Below are positions 13,629 through 51,155 of a stretch of 64,000 bases of DNA, piece by piece. Numbering within the stretch: the first letter of the stretch is position 1; the number at the start of each line of letters is the position of its first letter. The notes below the pieces were generated by a model. That model did no database searches and had not been told where the DNA came from. It worked only from the letters and a program-made list of their open reading frames with translations. Origin of the DNA: Parcubacteria group bacterium GW2011_GWA2_43_13 (GTDB lineage Bacteria > Patescibacteriota > Patescibacteriia > UBA9629 > GWA2-43-13); assembly GCA_000999025.1 (NCBI GenBank), contig LCFM01000005.1, positions 7,087 to 71,086 of the forward strand, read 5' to 3'. Both the position numbers and the translations under genes were made by a program.

Positions 13629-14483
13629 GATCGCGATATGTAACCTTCATTCGCACCCCACTGGACATGCGCTTCTCGCGCATCCAGCGAGTCCTTATAC
13701 ATTGATACTCTCCTTAAGGCGTTGGATTTTTTTACATCCATTATCAGTAAGATGTTGTTTATCGGCGATGAGAAAGGCGGCTTTACGAAAAAGAAGATAA
13801 TCTTTCCGTTTTTTTGCCTGTAGGGGATGCTTGTCAAAGAATGGAATAATATGTTCAACGATATCTTTAATATTTGAAACCTTTAGTTTGACGTGAGGTT
13901 TCCATTGAGCATATCGTTGATACTCCAATCTATAGAGATTTCCGCATCCTAATGTTTTTTGTATCGCTTGTAACACAGCACGATCATCTTCTTTGACTTC
14001 TATTTCAAAGAGGAGACGGACTTCTGATTTTCGGCGAAGTGTTTTGTGTTTGGCAATACTGATACAAAAACATCCTTCTCCATCTACGAACCCAACAATA
14101 TAATCAGGAGAAATGTGTAAGGTTTGTTCCTTCGTTTTTGGCATACTTATAAAGTATACCTCAAAACTACTATGAACGCAGCTGACTTCCTTTTAACCCA
14201 TCATTGGTTAACACGTTAAAAGGATCTCCCTGGGTTAGTGTATGAGCTATTTCCGACATTCCAAACGGGTTTTTAATGCTTACTTCCCATAGGTACACGC
14301 TATGATCGTAAACACCCTTATCGTGTTTGGGCTGTCATTTGTGTATAGAACCCTTCAGACATTCCCTTACGGGATATGTCCTGTTCGCAACTATTCCGCA
14401 CTCACTTTGGGGAATACCCCAAAGTGAGTGCGGGACAAGGATTTTCACCTTGTAGTTCATACGCCTGCCAGGCGCATTTAATT
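13629..14483 (-). mobile_element. intron in 16S rRNA (group-I-like) carrying a homing endonuclease gene, inserted between GGGCGGTG and TGTACAAG (E. coli approximately 1391)
   Basis: Conserved 16S sequence stops at 13628 and resumes at 14484. The intervening 855 bp contain the LAGLIDADG ORF. Confidence 0.8.
13695..14144 (-). CDS. LAGLIDADG-family homing endonuclease (single-motif)
   Basis: 149 aa. DYIVGFVDGEGCF motif (LAGLIDADG variant) near the N-terminus. Located wholly inside the 16S intron. Confidence 0.8.
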   Translation of the reverse strand: MPKTKEQTLHISPDYIVGFVDGEGCFCISIAKHKTLRRKSEVRLLFEIEVKEDDRAVLQAIQKTLGCGNLYRLEYQRYAQWKPHVKLKVSNIKDIVEHIIPFFDKHPLQAKKRKDYLLFRKAAFLIADKQHLTDNGCKKIQRLKESINV

Positions 14484-14546
14484 TGTACAAGACCCGAGAA
14501 CGTATTCAACGCGCCGTGGCTGATACGCGTTTACTAGCGATTCCGG

Positions 14547-14585
<39 letters not shown>

Positions 14586-14790
14586 GGTAGTTTTAAGGGA
14601 TTAGCTCCACCTCGCGGTTTGGCAACCCGTTGTACTACCCATTGTAGCGCGTGTGTCGCCCAGGACGTAAGAGCCATGCTGATTTGACGTCATCCCCACC
14701 TTCCTCCCTGTTAACCAGGGCGGTCTATTGTGGAAAGTAACACAATATAGGGGTTGCGCTCGTTTTCCGACTTAACGGTACACTTCACAG

Positions 14791-14821
<31 letters not shown>

Positions 14822-14915
14822 ATAGCACCCTCGAAGGCTTCCCGATTTCTCGGGATATGCAGCTATATGTCAAGCCCTGGTAAGGTTCCTCGCTTATCAT
14901 CGAATTAAACCACAC

Positions 14916-14985
<70 letters not shown>

Positions 14986-15793
14986 GGTACTTAACGCGTT
15001 AGCTTGGTTATAAGCACCTCTGGGAGGGTCGATACTCCCAAAAGCTAGTACCCATCGTTTACAGCGTGGACTACTGGGGTATCTAATCCCATTCGCTCCC
15101 CACGCTTTCGTCCATGAGTGTCAGAACTGTTCTAGCAAGCTGCCTTCGCCTTTGGTGTTCCGGCTGATATTAACGCATTTTACCGCTACACCAGCCGTTC
15201 CGCTTGCCTCTCCCAGTCTCGAGTTTGTCAGTTTTCCCCGCACTCTTATGGTTGAGCCACAAGATTTAACGAGAAACTTGACAAACAACCTGCGGACGCT
15301 TTACGCCCAATAAATCCGGATAACGCTTGAGGTCTCTGTATTACCGCTGCTGCTGGCACAGAGTTAGCAACCTCTTATTCGTAAGATACCTTCAGCCGAA
15401 GCTTATTCTCTTACAAAAGCCGTTTACAACCCGAAGGCCTTCTTCCGGCACGCGGCATTGCTCCTTCACGCTTTCGCGCATTGAGGAAGATTCTCGACTG
15501 CAGCCTCCCGTAGGAGTCTGGGCAGTTCTCAGTCCCAGTGAGGCGGGTCATGCTCTCACACCCGCTATCCGTCAGAGCCTTGGTGAGCTTTTACCTCACC
15601 AACAAGCTGATGGACCATAGGCCCCTCCTTTACCGCCGAAGCTTTCTTTTTCTTTCATATGAAAGAAAAACGTATGCGGTATTAGCCCGCCTTTCGGCAG
15701 GTTATTCCCCAGTAAAGGGTAGGTTACCAGTGTGTTACTCACCCGTTTGCCACTTGGCCTTGCGGCCACGTTCGACTTGCATGCCTAAGACAT

Positions 15794-15830
<37 letters not shown>

Positions 15831-16007
15831 ATAAAAGATTGTGATGCTTTTGTACACTATAGGCGCACCACGAACCTGAAAAATGTTGTATTTGGAATTG
15901 ACGTTGAGTTGGTCTATTACATTTCAGTTTTCAATGAACCGATACTCTTTTAACTAAAAACACAGAGGTCTTCTGTGCGTGATTTTTAGCTATGTTAAGA
16001 GCAGTAC

Positions 16008-26028: not shown

Positions 26029-26122
26029 GCAATCCTAACCTACTCATACATCCGAATCTACTAATACGGCGGACGTATTTGTAGATTAGCAGATTAGGAT
26101 GTCATTCGTAGATTAGGATTGC
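26029..26122. repeat. family-C palindromic element (about 94 bp), intergenic copy
   Basis: GCAATCCTAACCTACTCATACATCCGAATCTACTAATACG ... GTAGATTAGCAGATTAGGATGTCATTCGTAGATTAGGATTGC imperfect inverted repeat. A second copy lies inside tsaD at 32192-32316. Confidence 0.7.
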
Positions 26123-26124
26123 TT

Positions 26125-27363
26125 ATGATTATTGGTATTGACTTTTCCCGCGGTGAGATGGAACATCGCACCGGTGTGGAGTGGTATAGTCATAATATTG
26201 TTAAGCATCTACTTGATCTCGGCGCAGAGCACGAGATTGTTTTATATTCACGGAGGGGTGGGGTTTCCTCGTGTTGTAGAGATGGGGTTAACCCTGTCTC
26301 TATGGTGCATCTTCGCTGGCCATTCCGATTCGGCTGGACCCAGTTTCGTTTATCATTAGAAATGGTTCTGCGTCCGCCAGATGTATTGTTTGTACCATCG
26401 TATATTTTACCACCCATAACACCTAAACGCGTGGTAACTATGGTGCATGATGTCGCGTTTAAACGCCATCCAGAATGGTATTCTCAAAAACAAATACGAG
26501 TATTGGAATTAGGGATACGAAGGATTATTAAGAAACGTGTTGTTGTATTAGTGCCAACGGAATTTGTGAAACGAGAATTATTAAAGTTGTATCCGGAAAT
26601 GTGCGATTTGGATATTCGTGTCATTCCACATGGCGTTGATCACACGTTGTTTCGTCGTCGTTCCCCCTCGCCTTTACAAGGAGAGTCCGCTCCGCCAGCT
26701 GGTGGATGGCAGAGGGGTGAGGTGGTGGATACGAAAGTAGTACCCCCATCCCCGTATTTCCTCTTCATCGGTCGCTTGGAAAGTAAAAAAAATATTTCCC
26801 ATATTGTGGATGCATTTGTAGAGTTCGTCGGCGACGTTCCCTCGCCTTTACAAGGAGAGGGAAGGGTGAGGTCTTACGTAAAATCCGGCGACGTAGAGAC
26901 GGGGTTTCCGCCAGAGGCGGATCACCCACAGGGGGAAACTCCGTCTCTACAGACATCTCTCCTCCTCGTCGGTCGTCCTGGCCATGGTTACGAAAGATTT
27001 GCTCATAAATTGAATCATCCCAATATTCATGTTATACCATCGGTATCAGCCGAAGAATTGGTAATACTCTATCAAAATGCAATCGCATTGGTATTTTCAA
27101 CATTATACGAAGGGTTTGGTATGCCCATTCTTGAGGCCATGGCATGCGGATGTCCGGTAATCACCTCAAAAGGCGGTGCGTACGAAGAAGTGGCAGGAAC
27201 TGCCGCGTTATTGGTTGATCCTCATAATATATTAGATATTGCGGATGCAATGATAAAGATTCAATCAGGGGGCTGGAAGGAAAAAGGGTTAAAAAGAGCG
27301 CATCAATTTTCATGGGACGCATCAGCCCAACAAACATTAGCACTCGTATGCAACAAATATTGA
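26125..27363 (+). CDS. glycosyltransferase family 4 carrying in-frame repeat insertions
   Basis: N-terminal GT4 domain and C-terminal EGFGMPILEAMACGCPVITS motif. The middle (26650-26990) is built from family-A and family-B repeats translated in frame (SPSPLQGE..., VPSPLQGEG..., DVETGFPPEADHPQGETPSLQT). Confidence 0.75.
   Translation: MIIGIDFSRGEMEHRTGVEWYSHNIVKHLLDLGAEHEIVLYSRRGGVSSCCRDGVNPVSMVHLRWPFRFGWTQFRLSLEMVLRPPDVLFVPSYILPPITPKRVVTMVHDVAFKRHPEWYSQKQIRVLELGIRRIIKKRVVVLVPTEFVKRELLKLYPEMCDLDIRVIPHGVDHTLFRRRSPSPLQGESAPPAGGWQRGEVVDTKVVPPSPYFLFIGRLESKKNISHIVDAFVEFVGDVPSPLQGEGRVRSYVKSGDVETGFPPEADHPQGETPSLQTSLLLVGRPGHGYERFAHKLNHPNIHVIPSVSAEELVILYQNAIALVFSTLYEGFGMPILEAMACGCPVITSKGGAYEEVAGTAALLVDPHNILDIADAMIKIQSGGWKEKGLKRAHQFSWDASAQQTLALVCNKY
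26276..26303. repeat. family-A element copy inside GT4 gene
   Basis: GTAGAGATGGGGTTAACCCTGTCTCTAT. Confidence 0.7.
26653..26727. repeat. family-B element copy (CGTCGTCG..CCTCGCCTTTACAAGGAGAG..GGTGGATGGCAGAGGGGTGAGGTGG)
   Basis: Shares the CTCCTTTACAAGGAGAG palindrome and GGGGTGAGGT tail with copies at 26826, 28191, 29295 and 50848. Confidence 0.7.
26826..26872. repeat. family-B element copy
   Basis: CGTCGGCGACGTTCCCTCGCCTTTACAAGGAGAGGGAAGGGTGAGGT. Confidence 0.7.
26893..26950. repeat. family-A element copy with 30-nt internal loop insert
   Basis: GTAGAGACGGGGTTTCCGCCAGAGGCGGATCACCCACAGGGGGAAACTCCGTCTCTAC. Confidence 0.7.
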
Positions 27364-28781
27364 TATTTATTGTATTGGTAAGTTTGCCAGCATATTTGAT
27401 TCGGTTTGAGGTTTTTGGTATTCCAACCACGCTTTTGGAAATGGGAATTTATGCGGTGGCGTGTCTCCCGCTTCTTTACAATGAGAATCCGCTCCGTCAT
27501 CTGGCGGATGGCGGAGGGGTGAGGTGGAAGAAGAGATTCGCTGAGATGTTCCATCTGTTCAAACCATACCTCTGGCCATTACTGCTCTGGCTGGGAATGA
27601 CAACAGTGTCTGCTATAGTGAGCGCTACGTACGGGGATTGGATGTTGGGTTTTGGGATTTTGAAGGGATGGTTTTTTGATCCATTGTTGTTGACGTGGGT
27701 GGTTATGGCGTGTAGAGACGTGGCGGTGCCGCGTCTCCGTGGGAACGTGCCAGGTGGAGACGCCCCAGCGAGGCGTCTCTACAATATGCGTCTATTACTC
27801 GCCACAGGCCTTCTTGCTTCTGCGCTTATAATCAGCGCGTATGGATTATTTGATTACATGATGGGTTGGACGCGTGATGGTAGGTTAGATGCATTTTTTA
27901 AAACTTCAAATTATGTGTCCATGTTTATTGTGCCGGTATTGATATTGGGAGTAGGAATGATTGTAGAGACGCCCCCCTGGGGCGTCTCCGTCGCGCGCTG
28001 GAAATCGGCGCTGATGATCATTGTCATGATTATGATAACTACCGCTCTTATCCTCACCAATTCTTTTGGCGGCTGGATAAGCGCGTTGATTGGGGTAGTT
28101 GTTTTTTTCGTTTTTTTCTTACGACACCAAACACCCCCTTCCTGTCCCTCTTCCCATCACAAGGATGGGGCACAGCAAGAGGGGAGCGATCGTCGTCCCC
28201 CTCTCCTTTATAAGGAGAGGGTAGGGGTGAGGTGTTGGCGCATAGTTTTTATACTCATATCTCTCATGGTTCTTGGTGCTTTCGTCTGGTACGGCTTACC
28301 CCGTCACTTTACTCACCGCAACGAATTTTTTAATGTAACATCTTCCCAACTGCGACAAAATTTATGGCGTGTGGCAGGGGATATGGTGCAAACCCATCCG
28401 ATACTTGGTGTGGGGCTGGGAAGATTTCAAAAAGAATTGCCAATTCTTATAAAACAAAAACCGCACCTTTTGACGGTTCAAACGATATTAGTTGATTTTC
28501 ATCTTCCGCATAATTTATATCTGACAATCGCATCAGAATCCGGGCTCATCGCCTTGCTTGGTTTTCTATGGTTTATCGGGTTATGGTTATGGCGTGGAGC
28601 AAAACAATACATATCAACCCGTGATCCTATACTTCTCGGCGCACTCTGCGCCATGCTTACTATTCTCATCCACGGCTTTGTAGACACTCCATATTTTAAA
28701 AATGATTTATCGATATTGTTTTGGATAGTAGTGGTGATTGGAGTTTTGTCATCCTCAGAACGGAAGTATACCGTTTTGTAG
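27312..28781 (+). CDS. O-antigen ligase/polymerase-like (Wzy_C family) polytopic membrane protein carrying five in-frame repeat copies
   Basis: Multi-TM. GVGLGRFQKEL...HLPHNLYLTIASESG resembles the O-antigen ligase domain. True start may be the ATG at 27348. Family-A copies at 27712, 27756 and 27963, and family-B material at 27503 and 28191, are all read in frame. Confidence 0.6.
   Translation: MGRISPTNISTRMQQILIFIVLVSLPAYLIRFEVFGIPTTLLEMGIYAVACLPLLYNENPLRHLADGGGVRWKKRFAEMFHLFKPYLWPLLLWLGMTTVSAIVSATYGDWMLGFGILKGWFFDPLLLTWVVMACRDVAVPRLRGNVPGGDAPARRLYNMRLLLATGLLASALIISAYGLFDYMMGWTRDGRLDAFFKTSNYVSMFIVPVLILGVGMIVETPPWGVSVARWKSALMIIVMIMITTALILTNSFGGWISALIGVVVFFVFFLRHQTPPSCPSSHHKDGAQQEGSDRRPPLLYKERVGVRCWRIVFILISLMVLGAFVWYGLPRHFTHRNEFFNVTSSQLRQNLWRVAGDMVQTHPILGVGLGRFQKELPILIKQKPHLLTVQTILVDFHLPHNLYLTIASESGLIALLGFLWFIGLWLWRGAKQYISTRDPILLGALCAMLTILIHGFVDTPYFKNDLSILFWIVVVIGVLSSSERKYTVL
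27712..27738. repeat. family-A element copy
   Basis: GTAGAGACGTGGCGGTGCCGCGTCTCC. Confidence 0.65.
27756..27782. repeat. family-A element copy
   Basis: GGAGACGCCCCAGCGAGGCGTCTCTAC. Confidence 0.65.
27963..27989. repeat. family-A element copy
   Basis: GTAGAGACGCCCCCCTGGGGCGTCTCC. Confidence 0.65.
28191..28232. repeat. family-B element copy
   Basis: CGTCGTCCCCCTCTCCTTTATAAGGAGAGGGTAGGGGTGAGGT. Confidence 0.7.
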
Positions 28782-28829
28782 AGACGGGGTTCCATAATCA
28801 CAAGGGCGTGGCAAGAACCCTGTCTCTAC
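28778..28829. repeat. family-A element (long-loop variant) at convergent gene junction; probable bidirectional terminator
   Basis: GTAGAGACGGGGTTCC...GAACCCTGTCTCTAC. Its GTAG and CTAC termini are the stop codons of the plus-strand gene (TAG 28779-28781) and of valS on the minus strand (28826-28828). Confidence 0.7.
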
Positions 28830-31660
28830 GCAAGCTTGTTTAATTTTTTTTGCGCTTGGTGGAGTTTAGATTGTTCGGTTTGTATGACTGCTTTGGGCGC
28901 CTTTGCGAGGAAATCTTGATTTGAAAGTTTTTGCTCAAGAGATGTGATGTAATGTTCCAATTCTTTTTTTGCTTTATTGATTTTTTTATCATCGCGCGGG
29001 ATGTGCAGGGTGAGGGAGATACCATGTTCGTGGATAGTGTGGCCTTGGGTGTTTGTTTTGGTTTGATTGATAAATGTTACGCGTGCCAGTTTTTCGATGA
29101 GGAGGATATTGGGGGATATTCGGCGTTGTAGAGACGGGGTTAACCCCGTCTCTACAACGAGCGACGGTTCTATTTTAAACTCCGCCCGCGCGTTGCGGAT
29201 GGCTGTGATGATGGCACGGATAGTGGCGTGGTGTTTGAGGGCAGGTGAGGATTTAATGGTTGGTGATTTGGGGTAGGGGGCGATGAGGATCAATGACGAC
29301 GACACACCCTTCTGCCCCCTCTTAATAGAGGGGGAAACATCGTCGTCGTCCCCCTCTCCTTTACAAGGAGAGGGTAGGGGTGAGGTTAAGGAGGGGGTGG
29401 TATTTAATTCTCCCCACACTTTTTCCGTAATAAACGGGATAAACGGATGCCAGAGGCGTAACAGAGTTTGTAAAATATATAATAATATTTCGTTTTTTCC
29501 CTGTTCAATCTTTACAATCTCCACATACCAATCTGCAAATTTATCCCAGGTGAATTCGCGCAATTTTTCTCCGGCTGGTGAAAATTCAAAATTATCCATG
29601 TGCTTGGTAACATCATGGATCAAGATATCTAATTCTGCCAAAATCCATTCATCACTTAATGTTTGTGCTTTTGGTTTTTTTTCTATCAACTGTGGTGTAT
29701 CAACGGTGGTAAGAATAAACCGCGAGATATTCCAGAATTTATTGATAAAATTCCTAAACCCTTCAATTTTTTCCTCATACATTTTTATGTCATTACCCGG
29801 GGTGGAGCCGATAATTAAGGATAATCGCAACGCATCTGTGCCGTATGTTTGAATCATCTCTACTGGATCAATCCCATTGCCTAATGATTTTGACATTTTT
29901 CTGCCTTCTTTATCCCGCACCATCCCGTGAAGATACACGGTTTTAAAGGGGATTTGTTTAGTGTTATAGGTTGTCATTAAAATCATACGCGCAACCCAAA
30001 AGAATAAAATCTCATACCCTGGCGCCATGACTGAAGTTGGGTGGAATGTTTTAAAATCAGGCGAGCGTTTCAGCCATTCGGCAAGGGATTCATCTTTTTT
30101 TATTTTCGTATCAAGTAGGGTTGAAAATGTCCACAAGGCAGACGAGAACCATGTGTCCAATGTGTCCGGGTCCTGGGTAAACGTGGTGCTTCCACAGCGC
30201 TTGCATTTTTTAGGTTGCTCAATACTGGCGAGCGGGGGGCACGATTTTTTGATTTCGTCCGCCAGCTGGCGGATCGGATTTCGGATTTTTGTTTCGCAAT
30301 ACCAAACCGGCACTCTGTGTCCAAACCAAATTTGGCGGGAAATGCACCAGTCCTGTAAATTATTTATCCAGTGAAAATATGTTTTTTTAAATCTGCTCGG
30401 CAAAATTTCAATATCCTCGGATTTAACCACATCAATGGCAACTTCCTTGAGTGTTTTCTTTTTTCCTTTCCATACAACAGCTGGTTTATCCACGCTCATA
30501 AACCATTGCAAAGAAAGATACGGCTCAACCACTGCATCACAACGATAACAATGCCCAATATTATGTATGTGTTTTTCTGTTTTTTTCAGCAGTCCACGTT
30601 GTTGTAATTCCTCAATAATAAGTTTGCGAGCATCAGCAACAGCCCAGTTTTTGTATTTTCCGCCGTGATCATTGAGTGTGCCGTCAGGGTTGAGGATATT
30701 GATATATGCAAGATTGTGGCGTTTAGCGATTTGATCATCATTAAAATCATGCGCAGGAGTTACCTTTACCGCGCCGGTTCCAAATGAGGGGTCCACATGT
30801 CTGTCCGCAATGATTGGAATTTCGCGATTTGCAAGCGGAAGGGTAACAGTTTTGCCAATAAGATGTTTGTATCGTTCATCTTTTGGGTTGACTGCAACGG
30901 CCGTGTCGCCGAGCATGGTTTCCGGACGGGTTGTTGCGACGGTTATTTTGCCCCCCCCTCCTAAGGTAGGATGGGGTGGGGGGAGGTCTGAATTTTTTAT
31001 CGGATAATCAATATAATACAATATTCCTTCTGTTTCCGCGTATTCCACTTCGTCATCCGCAAGCGTGGATTCACATCTTGGACACCAATTGACCAACCGA
31101 TTGCCGCGAACAATCAATCCGTCGTTGTACATGTTTACAAATACTTTTTGTACGCATTTGGTAAGCACAGGCGACATGGTATATGCTTCGCGCGACCAAT
31201 CGCAACTTGCGCCTAATTTTCGCAGTTGATGTTCTATGGTTGTTTTTGATTCTTCAACATACTGATTCACGCGTTCCAAAAATTTTTCACGCCCTAAATC
31301 GTGCCGGGTTTTTCCTTCTTGCGAGATTAGTTTTTCTACCTTATTCTGAGTGGCAATAGCGGCATGATCCACACCCGGCACCCATAGTGTTTTTTCTCCT
31401 TTCATGCGGTGATACCGTACAATCACATCGTGCAGAGATGTTTCCATGGCATGGCCAAGATGCAACACCCCGGTTGCGTTCGGCGGTGGCATCATTAAAG
31501 AGAATGGCTTTATCTTTTTTCCTGAATAATGATCTGGATTAAAAAATCCTGACTGCTCCCATTGTCGGTATATGCCATCCTCAATTTTTTGAGGATCGTA
31601 TTGTTTGGGTAATTCGGCCTGTTTCCGCGTTTTTGATAGTTTTTTAGTGCCTTTTTTCAT
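28826..31660 (-). CDS. valS: valine--tRNA ligase
   Basis: HIGH (PNATGVLHLGHA) and KMSKS (KMSKSLGNGIDP) motifs, editing domain. 944 aa including approximately 60-80 aa of repeat-derived insert near the C-terminal coiled coil. Confidence 0.95.
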   Translation of the reverse strand: MKKGTKKLSKTRKQAELPKQYDPQKIEDGIYRQWEQSGFFNPDHYSGKKIKPFSLMMPPPNATGVLHLGHAMETSLHDVIVRYHRMKGEKTLWVPGVDHAAIATQNKVEKLISQEGKTRHDLGREKFLERVNQYVEESKTTIEHQLRKLGASCDWSREAYTMSPVLTKCVQKVFVNMYNDGLIVRGNRLVNWCPRCESTLADDEVEYAETEGILYYIDYPIKNSDLPPPHPTLGGGGKITVATTRPETMLGDTAVAVNPKDERYKHLIGKTVTLPLANREIPIIADRHVDPSFGTGAVKVTPAHDFNDDQIAKRHNLAYINILNPDGTLNDHGGKYKNWAVADARKLIIEELQQRGLLKKTEKHIHNIGHCYRCDAVVEPYLSLQWFMSVDKPAVVWKGKKKTLKEVAIDVVKSEDIEILPSRFKKTYFHWINNLQDWCISRQIWFGHRVPVWYCETKIRNPIRQLADEIKKSCPPLASIEQPKKCKRCGSTTFTQDPDTLDTWFSSALWTFSTLLDTKIKKDESLAEWLKRSPDFKTFHPTSVMAPGYEILFFWVARMILMTTYNTKQIPFKTVYLHGMVRDKEGRKMSKSLGNGIDPVEMIQTYGTDALRLSLIIGSTPGNDIKMYEEKIEGFRNFINKFWNISRFILTTVDTPQLIEKKPKAQTLSDEWILAELDILIHDVTKHMDNFEFSPAGEKLREFTWDKFADWYVEIVKIEQGKNEILLYILQTLLRLWHPFIPFITEKVWGELNTTPSLTSPLPSPCKGEGDDDDVSPSIKRGQKGVSSSLILIAPYPKSPTIKSSPALKHHATIRAIITAIRNARAEFKIEPSLVVETGLTPSLQRRISPNILLIEKLARVTFINQTKTNTQGHTIHEHGISLTLHIPRDDKKINKAKKELEHYITSLEQKLSNQDFLAKAPKAVIQTEQSKLHQAQKKLNKLA
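29128..29155. repeat. family-A element copy (canonical) inside valS
   Basis: GTAGAGACGGGGTTAACCCCGTCTCTAC perfect 28-bp palindrome. Translated as VETGLTPSL. Confidence 0.8.
29295..29386. repeat. family-B composite element inside valS
   Basis: GACGACGAC...CCCCCTCTTAATAGAGGGGG...CGTCGTCGTCCCCCTCTCCTTTACAAGGAGAGGGTAGGGGTGAGGT. Translated (minus strand) as SPLPSPCKGEGDDDDVSPSIKRGQKGVSS. Confidence 0.7.
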
Positions 31661-31760: not shown

Positions 31761-32897
31761 TTATTTTAGCCGCAGATTTGGATCTGCGGTTATTTTTCTG
31801 TAATCTGTTTTTTGTTTTGAGTATTTTGTTTTTACCAATGCGGCGATGGCGATCATGGCGGCGTTGTCAGCCGAGGTGCCGGGGAGAGGGAAGCGGAGAT
31901 CAGTTTTCGGTTTTCGGTTTTCAATTTTCAGTTTTTCTGTGAGTTGGTTTCGGAGGTGTTGATTTGCGGCGACACCGCCACCGACAACAAGGGTTTTAAT
32001 ATGGTAGTGTTCAACTGCTCGCAGGGTTTTTATAACTAACACATCAATTGCCGCGTTTTGAAATTCGCATGCGACTTGCGCGCGATTATAATCGGGGTGT
32101 TTTTCTATCAAATATCGCACTGCGGTTTTAAGTCCCGAGTAACTGAAGTTGAAGTCAGGAGAATCAATCATCGGGCGAGGGAATGTTATGGGCAATCCTA
32201 ATCTACTAATAACATCCGAATCTACGAATACGGGGCTGTCGTCTGTAGAGACGGGGTTAACCCCTCTTCTATGGTGTATTATTTGTAGATTAGGATGCAT
32301 TCGTATATTGGGATTGCTCCATTCGGATGCCTCTTGTTCTATCGCTGGACCGCCAGGATAGGGAAATCCTAAGAGTTTTGCTACTTTATCAAATGCTTCG
32401 CCCACCGCATCATCAATCGTTGTCCCGATAATCTCAAAATCATAGTGCTGTTTCATAAGCACCAATTGCGTGTGTCCGCCAGATACCAACAGCGCAAGCA
32501 CGGGAAATTGAAAATCATCAACATTTTTTAGTGTTGAGTAAATATGGCCAGCCATGTGGTTTATAGGAATGAGCGGTTTATTCCATGCCAGTGCCAGCGT
32601 TTTTGCCGTCTCTACGCCGATATGCAATGCCGCTATAAGACCGGGGCCCTGCGTTACGGCAATGCCGTCTATATTTTGATACGAAATATGAGCGGCATCA
32701 AACGCTTGTGTGATAACAGGGATGATATTGAGGATATGGTTACGCGCGGCAATTTCCGGTATGACGCCACCATATTGTGCGTGAATTTTGGCTTGCGATG
32801 CGATGATATTTGACACAATAGCAATAGCACCATTTGTTTCTTGTACAATGGCGGCCGCGGTTTCATCGCATGATGATTCAATTCCAAGGATGATCAT
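31761..32897 (-). CDS. tsaD: tRNA N6-adenosine threonylcarbamoyltransferase TsaD (Kae1/YgjD family) carrying in-frame repeat insertions
   Basis: MIILGIESSCDETAAAIV..., HMAGHI and GGVAAN motifs. Start moved to ATG 32897. Contains a nested family-C/family-A insert (32192-32316) and a family-D heptamer array (31897-31945). Confidence 0.9.
   Translation of the reverse strand: MIILGIESSCDETAAAIVQETNGAIAIVSNIIASQAKIHAQYGGVIPEIAARNHILNIIPVITQAFDAAHISYQNIDGIAVTQGPGLIAALHIGVETAKTLALAWNKPLIPINHMAGHIYSTLKNVDDFQFPVLALLVSGGHTQLVLMKQHYDFEIIGTTIDDAVGEAFDKVAKLLGFPYPGGPAIEQEASEWSNPNIRMHPNLQIIHHRRGVNPVSTDDSPVFVDSDVISRLGLPITFPRPMIDSPDFNFSYSGLKTAVRYLIEKHPDYNRAQVACEFQNAAIDVLVIKTLRAVEHYHIKTLVVGGGVAANQHLRNQLTEKLKIENRKPKTDLRFPLPGTSADNAAMIAIAALVKTKYSKQKTDYRKITADPNLRLK
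31897..31945. repeat. family-D heptamer tandem array (CAGTTTTCG GTTTTCG GTTTTCA ATTTTCA GTTTTTC)
   Basis: Five degenerate 7-mer units, in frame in the tsaD C-terminus. Related arrays at 16414, 16851 and 51996. Confidence 0.6.
32192..32316. repeat. composite nested element: family-C palindrome with a family-A element (32245-32272) inserted at its centre, inside tsaD
   Basis: GCAATCCTAATCTACTAATAACATCCGAATCTACGAATACGG-[GTAGAGACGGGGTTAACCCCTCTTCTAT]-...ATTTGTAGATTAGGATGCATTCGTATATTGGGATTGC. Compare the insert-free copy at 26029-26122. Confidence 0.75.
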
Positions 32898-33018
32898 AAT
32901 ACTTTCCACATTAACGGAATTTTGTTTTGCGGTAAAGTATAGTTGACTTGATATGAGGATTTCGTTATCCTTGCTTATGTTTAGATGAGACGAAAAGGTG
33001 TTATACACATGAAATCAA

Positions 33019-37150: not shown

Positions 37151-38185
37151 ATGAATACTTCATTGTTTGATTATCATCTTCCAAAAGAGCTCATAGCTCA
37201 TGAGCCAATAACACCCCGCGATTCAGCGCGGGTGTTTGTTGTGGAGGGGGAGGTGCGTCATCATGATTTTTTTTATAATATTGGGAAATATGTTAAAAAA
37301 GGCGATATTCTTGTGCGTAATGTTACAAAGGTGTTTCCAGCGCGTCTTTATGCTACAAAAATGACTGGAGGTAAGGTAGAGATTTTATTAGTCCGTCCAT
37401 TAGACGGTTCTCGATGGGAGTGTTTAGTAGGGGGACGCGCAAAAGACGGGATGGAGGTGCGATTCGATTGTAGAGACGTGCCCTTGGCACGTCTCTCGGA
37501 AACGCCCCAGGGGGGCGTCTCTATGATATGGATTATAGATTTCGGGCAAAATATAGATAACCTTGGAACACTCATTGAAACCGCAGGTCAAACGCCCGTG
37601 CCACCATATATTCACACCGATATGGCGGAGCAGGAATTGCGCGACCGATATCAAACAATATATGCGCATAAAAGTGGTTCAGTGGCGGCGCCAACCGCTG
37701 GCCTGCATTTTACTGATGAATTGATAGATCAGTTGAAACGCCAAGGTATTGAATTTTTAGACATTATTTTGCATGTGGGGATTGGCACTTTTTTGCCTGT
37801 AAAAACGAAAAACGTAGAAGATCACTCTATGCATGCCGAGTATGTAGATATCTCAAATGAGGTTGCACAAAAAATATGTTCAGCAAAATATGAAGGCCGA
37901 CGTCTCATCGCTATTGGAACAACTACGACCCGTGCGCTTGAGGCGTGCGCAGATACACTGTTATTAGGTAAAGGATATACAGGCGAGGTGAATATATTTA
38001 TAACGCCTGGATACGAGTTTCGTATGATTGATGGATTGGTGACTAATTTTCATCTTCCAAAATCAACATTACTCATGCTGGTTTCTGCGTTTGCAGGCCG
38101 TGAAAATATCCTTTCTTGTTACCAAGAGGCCATTGCATTGGGCTACACATTTTACTCTTTTGGTGATGCAATGCTGATAAGTTAA
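37151..38185 (+). CDS. queA: S-adenosylmethionine:tRNA ribosyltransferase-isomerase QueA carrying two tandem family-A insertions
   Basis: MNTSLFDYHLPKELIAHEPITPRDSARV... and conserved QueA blocks. 37469-37523 translates as DCRDVPLARLSETPQGGVSM. Confidence 0.9.
   Translation: MNTSLFDYHLPKELIAHEPITPRDSARVFVVEGEVRHHDFFYNIGKYVKKGDILVRNVTKVFPARLYATKMTGGKVEILLVRPLDGSRWECLVGGRAKDGMEVRFDCRDVPLARLSETPQGGVSMIWIIDFGQNIDNLGTLIETAGQTPVPPYIHTDMAEQELRDRYQTIYAHKSGSVAAPTAGLHFTDELIDQLKRQGIEFLDIILHVGIGTFLPVKTKNVEDHSMHAEYVDISNEVAQKICSAKYEGRRLIAIGTTTTRALEACADTLLLGKGYTGEVNIFITPGYEFRMIDGLVTNFHLPKSTLLMLVSAFAGRENILSCYQEAIALGYTFYSFGDAMLIS
37469..37495. repeat. family-A element copy
   Basis: GTAGAGACGTGCCCTTGGCACGTCTCT. 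Confidence 0.65.
37498..37523. repeat. family-A element copy (partial left arm)
   Basis: GAAACGCCCCAGGGGGGCGTCTCTAT. Confidence 0.6.
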
Positions 38186-39559: not shown

Positions 39560-39636
39560 TGGGAGGCAACGGCGGGAATCGAACCCGCGTATAAGGGTTT
39601 TGCAGACCCATGCCTTACCACTTGGCTACGTTGCCT
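39560..39636 (-). tRNA. tRNA-Cys (anticodon GCA), CCA encoded
   Basis: Reverse complement AGGCAAC...GTTGCCT acceptor. Anticodon loop CTGCAAA at standard positions 32-38. T-loop GGTTCGATTCC. 3-bp D-stem. Confidence 0.7.
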
Positions 39637-39811
39637 CTCACTCGATTGAATCGCTCCGCACCTTTCCGTTCAATGGGTTTTGGTATTCAACGGAAGAGAG
39701 CGAAGCGGCTCCGCCTCACATCTATGATTTTAAAGAAGATCATTCGCGAGAAAGGTGTGGGGTTGCAGACCCCATGCCTGACCATTGTTGGTTTGTCATT
39801 TGTGTCGGCTT

Positions 39812-39839
39812 GCAGAGACGGGGTTAACCCCGTCTCTGC
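39812..39839. repeat. family-A element copy (GCAGAGACGGGGTTAACCCCGTCTCTGC) in the polA upstream region
   Basis: Canonical centre GGGGTTAACCCC. Located between tRNA-Cys and the polA start. Confidence 0.7.
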
Positions 39840-39957
39840 AACTAAAAACACATCAACTGTACCAAGATTAGTGCCAAAATGCAACTATTCAAAAAGGATG
39901 GAGGAAGGTATACTGGTTGGAGTAATACCACCTCATCTCTCTTGGGGAGGCCGAACT

Positions 39958-50068: not shown

Positions 50069-51155
50069 TTATCATAATTTGTTTGATGATACTTGATTTA
50101 TACAGTTCCGGTTTATAGGCGTCTAATCGGAGAACGTGGGTTTTAAACCCGCGTTCTTTTAGTTCTTTGCGCAGTTGAGTTTCGCTATATGCTTGGTCAT
50201 ATCCTAAACAGATTAGATTTGGAGAATATTTTTTAATCAATGCAAAGTAATCAGTTTCATCGCCGATATATGCATCATCTACATACTTCAACGCTTTAAT
50301 GTGTTGAAGTCGTTCTTGTTGCGTATAGATTGGTGGTTTCTTTTTTTGTTTCATAACATTGTTGTCTGTTGTAATAACAACAATCAGCTGGGAGCTGAAT
50401 TTTTTTGCCTGCTGAAAAAAATATTCATGGCCTTTGTGGAGTAGGTCGAATACGCCAAAGACCATGACTGTAGAGTTTGTATGGGGTGGTGGGAGAGTGG
50501 GTAGTGTGATTGCGTCGTCCAATGTGAAATCACCAATCGCGGTGCGGCTGAGGGATGTAAGATACGCGCCGTATCCGAGTGATTTGCCGATGTCATGACC
50601 AAGCGTGCGGATATAGGTTCCGCTTGAACAATGCACGTCTATTGTGAGATGTGGCCATTTATATGAGATGAGATCAATAGAATAGATTTCTATCTCATGC
50701 GGTTTGCGTTCTATCTCTTTGCCTTGGCGGGCAAGCTCATAGAGTTTTTTTCCATTCACTTTTTTTGCTGAGTACATGGGAGGGGTTTGGAGTTGGCGAC
50801 CGAGAAAGGAGGATAATGTGGTTTCGAGTTCGACTGTTTTTTCTAATACCTCACCCCAACCCTCTCCTTGTAAAGGAGAGGGGGTTACGACGCCCGTTTT
50901 ATCCTGCGTGTCGCTGGTTGCGCCTAAAAAGAGGATTGCGCGGTATTTTTTATCTAACCCAACAAAGTATTTTAATAATTTAGTAGAGGACCCAATAGCC
51001 ATAATCAACAACCCGTCTGCAAACGGGTCAAGTGTTCCTGCATGGCCAATCTGTCTGATGCCAGTGATACGGCGGAGCTGGTTGACTATGTCATGCGATG
51101 TCGGGCCAGCAGGTTTATTGATGAGTAAAAATCCATTCATACTGCCAGTTTTCAA
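50034..51155 (-). CDS. truB: fusion protein: tRNA pseudouridine(55) synthase TruB catalytic domain + C-terminal cytidylyltransferase-like nucleotidyltransferase domain (RibF FMN-adenylyltransferase-like)
   Basis: N-terminal 225 aa are TruB (LLINKPAGPTSHDIV, GHAGTLDP catalytic Asp motif) with a family-B insert. C-terminal approximately 140 aa (from MVFGVFDLLHKGHEYFF, ...YKSSIIKQI) have HxGH and ISSTxIR-like nucleotidyltransferase motifs. No PUA domain and no riboflavin-kinase domain. Confidence 0.7.
   Translation of the reverse strand: MKTGSMNGFLLINKPAGPTSHDIVNQLRRITGIRQIGHAGTLDPFADGLLIMAIGSSTKLLKYFVGLDKKYRAILFLGATSDTQDKTGVVTPSPLQGEGWGEVLEKTVELETTLSSFLGRQLQTPPMYSAKKVNGKKLYELARQGKEIERKPHEIEIYSIDLISYKWPHLTIDVHCSSGTYIRTLGHDIGKSLGYGAYLTSLSRTAIGDFTLDDAITLPTLPPPHTNSTVMVFGVFDLLHKGHEYFFQQAKKFSSQLIVVITTDNNVMKQKKKPPIYTQQERLQHIKALKYVDDAYIGDETDYFALIKKYSPNLICLGYDQAYSETQLRKELKERGFKTHVLRLDAYKPELYKSSIIKQIMIITPLVVHSTHL
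50848..50891. repeat. family-B element copy (reverse orientation) inside truB
   Basis: ACCTCACCCCAACCCTCTCCTTGTAAAGGAGAGGGGGTTACGACG. Translated as TPSPLQGEGWGEV. Confidence 0.7.

Follow-up and report, generated by a model that had tools for sequence, protein, structure and literature searches.

A 126-bp composite palindrome lies in frame within tsaD in the genome of a CPR bacterium, Candidatus Jacksonbacteria. It is probably selfish repeat DNA that a permissive loop on the TsaD surface tolerates, and not a functional addition to the enzyme. This composite (C2, 32192..32317) was analyzed within a stretch of 64,000 nucleotides of the genome (hereafter, the window), and combines the inverted arms of one palindrome family (family C) with a central hairpin of a second family, which has a GAGACG...CGTCTC outer stem. 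In the mechanism that we propose, the C2 arms would be a miniature form of the inverted repeats found around GxxExxY (PF13366, PD-(D/E)XK) nuclease genes, and the decayed GAGACG...CGTCTC hairpin would occupy the position that the nuclease gene holds in the full-length cassette. The composite would have entered tsaD at the loop that connects the PGGP helix to the PRPM motif and would be translated as ~39 extra, probably disordered, residues; its survival there would be due to the tolerance of the loop, to a length divisible by three and to the one stop-free frame in which each arm is read.

The host coding sequence (31761..32897, minus strand) encodes 378 aa from MIILGIESS, its true start, the mechanical ORF running further, up to a GTG at 33008. 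Its product belongs to the TsaD/Kae1 family, as shown by a PF00814 match (E 9.4e-88; 294.8 bits versus a Pfam gathering cutoff of 24.8) and by retention of the metal-binding residues H114/H118 (His-x3-His) and D344 in invariant alignment columns; PDB TsaD chains match it with an E of 1e-78. The AF2 model (mean pLDDT 89.9) has an intact core fold (>95) despite the insert, and the enzyme is probably functional; the low pLDDT of the insert (41-48; residues ~199-225) points to a probably disordered excursion of the chain that links the PGGP helix to the PRPM motif. The alignment with the E. coli/Salmonella TsaD structures breaks at this position, query residues 229-274 corresponding to chain residues 189-195. 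The expanded loop spans the codons of E192-P236 (32190..32324, minus strand) and has 45 residues versus ~6 in a typical TsaD, so that the net gain is ~39 residues and not the 43 counted in the sequence-only reading of this DNA. That reading had also stated that the frame is kept across the insert, and the ORF is indeed open and stop-free throughout C2. An intein was considered and rejected, since an intein would have Cys, Ser or Thr at each splice junction, end in His-Asn and measure at least ~130 aa, and the TsaD segment has 45 aa, starting with E-W-S and ending with G-L-P.

The nearest TsaD that we found (P0002, 72% identity) is encoded on a fully syntenic contig (L001), which is 76% identical to this genome at the nucleotide level and in which the gene order ruvB-vanW-hsp20-tsaD-valS-wzy-GT4 matches that of the window. 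Its PGGP-PRPM loop has neither C nor hairpin sequence and holds instead a different small palindrome, CCCCCTCTCCTACCTTAGGAGGGGG. Furthermore, the alignment of orthologs revealed no segment homologous to the 43 residues originally delimited, with P0002 lacking it and the other long CPR loops being unrelated in sequence, and this establishes the segment as an insertion in tsaD.

C2 is composed of a window-left arm (32192..32233) with two 19-20-nt units carrying CTAAT/CGAAT motifs, a 43-nt centre segment (32234..32276), and a window-right arm (32277..32317) that is the inverted complement of the left one. Its sister copy in the window, C1 (26029..26122; 94 bp), is ORF-less and lies between genes; 3 nt separate its end from the ATG (26126) of a GT4 glycosyltransferase gene. 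The sequence-only reading had identified the tsaD element as a second family-C copy with the same arms as C1; the identification stands, with the span now set at 126 bp instead of 125 bp ending at 32316, and the arms do align as one family (38 nt at 87% identity in a repeat-pair search), but they are not identical, because the right arm of C1 contains a 9-nt GTAGATTRG duplication that C2 does not have. Both C copies fold far more stably than shuffled sequences, at -49.1 kcal/mol (z -7.3) and -40.7 kcal/mol (z -7.2), and an arm 15-mer is over-represented (12 matches versus 1.9 expected). The C-arm signature occurs within the window at C1 and C2 only, and not in shuffled sequences (0 matches). 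Each family-C arm has a single stop-free frame, reading NPNLR.../...FVDSDVIRRLGL, both in tsaD and in the small ORFs that overlap other copies.

The centre of C2 carries TGTAGAGACGGGGTTAACCCCTCTTCTATGG (32244-32274), a hairpin of the GAGACG family with one half decayed. This sequence has an exact 21-mer in common with a perfect 36-bp GAGACG/GTTAAC hairpin located in frame in valS (29124..29159), and the same holds for a near-perfect second copy of the valS hairpin (39810..39841), which lies upstream of polA or in an N-terminal extension of it, the PolA domains beginning at ORF residue 121. The proposal that a hairpin from another family sits at the centre of C2 is thus borne out, and the element is a composite of two repeat families. 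Within the hairpin family the GAGACG...CGTCTC outer stem is invariant, and four inner pairs switch among CG, GC and UA yet remain complementary; these compensatory changes fill 24 double-sided cells, a number reached by none of 500 shuffles and far above slid controls. The tsaD copy, in which 3 of the 12 stem pairs are broken, is the most decayed member of the family.

Hairpin inserts of this kind are widespread in the window. We aligned eight window proteins with their L001 orthologs and assessed indels of at least 4 aa; in GT4, Wzy, ValRS, TsaD and QueA, almost all of these indels are GC-rich hairpin repeats, always in frame. The window contains 20 perfect hairpins with a stem of at least 10 bp, compared to 0.5 in shuffled sequences. 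The AT-rich ones are intergenic and terminator-like, and the GC-rich ones are members of repeat families, with at least six lying inside clear genes. Among the inserts are a 21-aa in-frame segment in GT4 (26887..26949, plus strand), formed by a GAGACG hairpin with an inner palindrome, CCGCCAGAGGCGG..., that is absent in L001, and an 11-aa in-frame palindrome in valS, CCTACCTTAGGAGGGGG (30953..30985, minus strand), of the same family as the small palindrome in the L001 tsaD loop. Neither target-site duplications nor clean empty-site junctions could be defined for the hairpin inserts with empty L001 sites, and at gathering scores the Rfam models matched only 16S rRNA and tRNAs in the window, leaving the repeats unmatched.

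Outside the window, a metagenome scan recovered 22 contigs with C arms, none of them from the window organism. The copies are mostly located between genes, and a start codon often follows within a few nucleotides, so that intergenic C copies may have a cis-regulatory role; the tsaD copy is the only one within a gene body among the copies sampled. Many elements measure 93-107 bp with few loop bases, and their centres are variable: contigs L016, L018 and L020 have C elements that hold other hairpins, and the C element of L024 has a half copy of the GAGACG hairpin at its centre, with the flank seen in tsaD. The flanks of 17 C copies showed no direct target-site duplication and, if anything, prolong the palindrome (A...T), and for family C, too, no clean junction with an empty site could be defined. 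An exact-pattern scan for C arms in species-representative genomes returned no matches, and the window genome therefore lies outside that collection; there were likewise no matches in viral contigs, and thus no sign of a phage origin.

Two of the contigs (L012 and L023) contain a 487-bp element in which canonical C arms surround a frameshifted GxxExxY gene (TIGR04256, E 2e-16; PF13366, E 5e-16), and in other Jacksonbacteria (L029) the same locus has an intact ortholog whose start and stop codons are abutted by C-like arms. The family product is a 125-aa PD-(D/E)XK protein. GxxExxY cassettes occur in unrelated contexts, for instance between atpD and atpC, and in a species-representative scan 65 of the 76 testable GxxExxY genes, drawn from many CPR phyla, were bracketed by inverted repeats scoring z ≥ 5 (median 9.1), versus 0 of 73 shifted controls. 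All these arms have a common design, opening with (A)GCAAT or GCGAT and continuing with some four YNAAT motifs, mostly CGAAT, every 8-11 nt, inverted on the other side, and both C1 and C2 conform to this arm signature, which we propose here. L012 also has a 93-bp miniature element 500 bp from the cassette, with near-identical arms. The 93/94-bp miniature elements of different organisms (L012 and C1 of the window) share the derived 9-nt duplication, which is lacking in cassette arms and in C2; the shared duplication implies that they were copied from a master element. By arm sequence, C2 is nearer to cassette-type arms than to C1 and does not derive from a C1-type 93/94-bp element.

Family C is hence best read, on the evidence of arm sequence, as a miniature, ORF-less version of the inverted-repeat arms bracketing GxxExxY genes, and the centre of a C element would then be a cargo position, held by the GxxExxY gene in the full-length element. 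The periodic design common to these arms leads us to infer that their CGAAT motifs are bound by the GxxExxY protein, which would mobilize both cassettes and miniature elements; alternatively, the arms could be RNA-level processing or regulatory stems. The frameshift in the canonical-arm cassette of L012 is a point against the GxxExxY partner reading. The GxxExxY family is listed as one of unknown function (PMC3424549), is not a defence family in PADLOC, has one PHROG, of unknown function, and has no solved relative in the PDB. In the 64-kb window, tblastn with 40 GxxExxY proteins found no GxxExxY gene, no transposase was identified among the ORFs examined, and tblastn with rpsO, xerC and NYN of L012 found no empty-cassette site. 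We advance only tentatively the broader view that GxxExxY (PF13366) genes and their periodic-CGAAT arms constitute an unrecognized class of CPR selfish elements, in which the protein would bind the motifs and mobilize cassettes and miniature elements, and that these elements, together with the GC-rich hairpins, may be a main source of lineage-specific CPR insertions, including those in TsaD and ValRS. In L040, a PF05635 (23S_rRNA_IVP) gene located outside rRNA and equipped with its own inverted-repeat arms adjoins a GxxExxY cassette.

The chances that the hairpin entered the C element before or after the latter entered tsaD are about even; both orders are frame-compatible, removal of 42 nt leaving an open frame, and the searches for TsaD homologs recovered no allele with a C element only. 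A history of two successive insertions, in which C would have landed in the loop and the unpaired tip that it forms as a hairpin or cruciform would later have been the specific target of a GAGACG hairpin insertion, is conceivable but doubtful. It accords with the lack of a tsaD-type GAGACG hairpin at the centre of all other sampled C copies, with an in-frame, stop-free C-only intermediate if the nested piece is 42 nt, and with the precedent of IS elements that target REP sequences (PMC1525189). Extra hairpins also occupy palindrome centres in the window at 26893-26950 and 28778-28829, and in the C elements of L016, L018 and L024, and the CGGCG preceding several hairpin copies resembles the C1 centre, ACGGCGGACG. 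Against these points, besides the lack of a C-only allele, the C element with a half-hairpin in another organism (L024) indicates that composites exist outside tsaD, the C2 junctions are not clean relative to C1, the nested GC palindrome of L020 lies in an arm and not at the centre, and tolerance at a central cargo position suffices to explain the pattern without targeting.

An account that dispenses with dedicated mobility, and attributes the hairpins to breakage at the hairpin tip repaired by template switching or gene conversion, which would change interiors and keep outer stems, is in our view unlikely to be sufficient. The orthologous valS and queA sites of the window and L001, the former being that of the perfect 36-bp hairpin, fit this account: they have a common outer stem, GTTGTAGAGACG...CGTCTCTACAA, and different interiors. 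So do the inner stems that flip while remaining complementary and the lack of target-site duplications. However, remodelling does not explain the first arrival of repeats at empty sites (GT4, valS 30953, the tsaD loop), the almost identical copies found across unlinked loci and across organisms, or the derived duplication shared by the miniature elements.

The presence of hairpins at palindrome centres is compatible with in-place remodelling, and fits tip-targeted insertion and survivorship equally well. Several claims attached to the nested arrangement in the sequence-only reading go further than the evidence. Mobility had been called recent, yet the hairpin has decayed, the C2 and C1 arms are only ~87% alike, and L001 has a C-type hairpin at the site orthologous to C1, so that C elements can be old. 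It had also been called repeated, but the composite may have landed in tsaD as one unit, given that C with a half-hairpin is known from an unrelated contig (L024). As to the idea that the hairpin family targets palindrome centres, finally, extra sequence does occur at the centres of C elements and of GAGACG hairpins, but the C centre is also the cargo position, and either tolerance or survivorship accounts for the pattern as well as targeting.

The TsaD loop itself is, judging from homolog sequences, a recurrent and permissive landing site. Across 117 CPR TsaD homologs, PGGP and PRPM usually lie 16-25 residues apart, and in 25 of them the distance reaches 28-73 residues, with extra sequences that are mutually unrelated and repeat-like. 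The three long-loop tsaD genes that were examined as DNA all have hairpins or low-complexity repeats, and in one of them (L027) the same element is found in the PGGP-PRPM loop and again in a second loop. The expansion of this loop in about one fifth of CPR TsaDs, together with the identity of the insert in two samples, might suggest that the segment is an adaptive, lineage-specific module of TsaD, such as a partner-binding loop, merely derived from repeat DNA. We consider this improbable, given that the loop inserts of different lineages are unrelated in sequence, that the insert is absent from the nearest relative and predicted to be disordered, and that the same repeat families occur in many unrelated proteins.

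An assembly chimera, with a repeat wrongly joined into tsaD, can be practically dismissed: the identical insert is present in two independently deposited sequences, L002 (NCBI MAG GCA_001818135.1, 100% identical, with a partial TsaD protein 100% identical to that of the window) and L003 (JGI metagenome 3300025311, 99.9% identical), and, even though both contigs terminate within tsaD at window position 31956, beside a 7-mer tandem repeat that evidently makes the gene difficult to assemble, both span the whole insert identically and run ~230 bp past it, the window assembly is concordant with them, and the frame is kept exactly.

Taken as selfish repeat DNA tolerated in a loop, the tsaD segment has its closest known analog, by comparison with described systems, in the Rickettsia palindromic elements (RPEs), which are ~100-150 bp long and fall into ten families, with a conserved peptide encoded by each (Ogata et al. 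2000, summarized in PMC10969869). As characterized in that summary, RPEs resemble the window elements in being multi-copy palindromes in frame in unrelated, often essential genes of a small reduced genome, where they add fold-compatible extra peptides, and the window elements show the same in-frame, fold-compatible insertion. They differ in that the units described here measure ~24-126 bp, include simple GC-rich covarying hairpins, can be nested, reside in a CPR host and, for one family, have a candidate partner gene (GxxExxY), and membership in RPE-1 to RPE-10 is unlikely given the difference in phylum and in unit size. Family C likewise has the arm organization of MITEs, being short, non-coding and multi-copy with inverted arm ends. 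As in MITEs, a longer, gene-carrying form exists whose terminal inverted repeats recur on the ORF-less copies, and the miniature elements share derived features; in contrast, the GxxExxY partner is not a known transposase, there is no target-site duplication, and the miniature element is almost wholly arm.

REP/REPIN-RAYT systems (PMC1525189, PMC3333891) are similar in their conserved stem, in a single-copy gene flanked by repeats that it is thought to mobilize, and in having mobile DNA within palindromes. However, REPs are extragenic and many of the present copies are intragenic, the nested piece is a 31-43-nt hairpin and not an IS, and no Y1/HUH gene was seen among the ORFs examined in the window, a limited sample of 64 kb. 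The Coxiella IVS/S23p elements (PMC4990558) also have a long inverted-repeat stem whose loop carries a small ORF, with variants that lack the ORF, but 23S rRNA IVSs occupy helices of the rRNA, from which RNase III removes them, whereas the elements described here are located between or inside protein-coding genes. In the literature searched, whose coverage is incomplete, we found no report of in-frame hairpins or MITEs in CPR, or of GxxExxY cassettes or their mobility.

CPR/Patescibacteria have tiny, streamlined genomes, yet many of their conserved proteins have unexplained lineage-specific insertions. Compared with its syntenic relative, this locus points to hairpin repeats that land in frame in tolerant loops as a concrete source for such insertions, with fast turnover between related genomes, and the link between C arms and GxxExxY genes offers a testable role, with defined DNA substrates, for a widespread family without assigned function. 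Such repeats also disrupt short-read assemblies within genes and inflate the apparent divergence of proteins used as phylogenomic markers.

Every intragenic copy examined is in frame and stop-free, which argues that the insert is translated, and on the same grounds we rejected ribosomal bypass of the insert. Yeast mitochondrial GC clusters, including the byp elements, are GC-rich palindromic mobile clusters in the coding sequences of an AT-richer genome, and ribosomes bypass the byp elements, for which keeping the frame is not required. The elements of the window are similarly GC-rich palindromes within coding sequences, but their intragenic copies keep the frame and are stop-free. At the protein level, the TsaD insert sequence would yield the tryptic peptides MHPNLQIIHHR and GVNPVSTDDSPVFVDSDVISR.

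Inverted repeats carrying periodic CGAAT motifs flank GxxExxY (PF13366) genes in 65 of 76 cases from many CPR phyla, as seen across GTDB genomes (L042-L121), with L029, L035, L038 and L040 as further loci of this kind; one such gene with CGAAT-periodic arms lies between atpD and atpC. The combination of GxxExxY gene and CGAAT inverted repeats has the look of a cassette or mobile unit not described before. In L040 (544-963) and L041 (586-963), a PF05635 (23S_rRNA_IVP, four-helix-bundle) gene located outside any rRNA gene adjoins a GxxExxY cassette within a prgI/traC-like cluster. This gene has inverted-repeat arms of its own, which are unlike those of the neighbouring cassette and contain GGAAGATGTAAGATGG units (z 6.6).

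Family-C elements, the palindromes read as an ORF-less form of these arms, frequently stop just short of a start codon, at a distance of 3-6 nt (window 26108-26128; also in L004, L008 and L009). At the intergenic copy C1, the terminal TAGGATTGC places an AGGA six nt upstream of the ATG of GT4, and the hairpin may thus either mask a ribosome-binding site or contribute one. In L001, the closest syntenic relative, the orthologous position is occupied by a 68-nt hairpin (15166-15233) with CGAAT-periodic arms, whose arm sequence differs from that of C1 and whose 15-nt termini are perfect; either the arms are co-evolving or the site was hit twice.

Numerous further GC-rich palindromes, belonging to at least two families (GAGACG hairpins and CCCTCTCCTTTACAAGGAGAGGG), are inserted in frame in window genes: in GT4 (26671-26736 and 26887-26949), several in Wzy (27462-28244), in valS (30953-30985, 29124-29159 and 29343-29386), in queA (37466-37524) and at 50845-50887. 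The majority are missing or differ at the orthologous L001 site. Within 39560-39841, a minus-strand tRNA-Cys gene overlaps the mechanical polA ORF at its start. Since PolA domains are found from ORF residue 121 onward, the hairpin at 39810-39841 may be part of a leader instead of the coding sequence.

In another CPR genome (L027, 2930-4177), two separate loops of a single tsaD gene contain one and the same hairpin element, CCCGCCAAGGCGGGACCCCGCCAAGGCGG bordered by AATTTCCAATTTC repeats. The 3' part of the window tsaD contains the 7-mers TTTTCGG/TTTTCAA/TTTTCAG in tandem (31900-31942), coding for KLKIENRKPKT in a variable loop of TsaD. The public contigs L002 and L003 both end at 31956, adjoining this run, which is therefore probably a breakpoint for short-read assemblies.

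The 16S rRNA gene (14449-15836) spans only 1388 nt, although the match covers all 1533 positions of the model; nowhere in the window was a 23S match obtained. A perfect AT-rich palindrome is present in the 5' variable region of the 16S rRNA gene (15647-15670).
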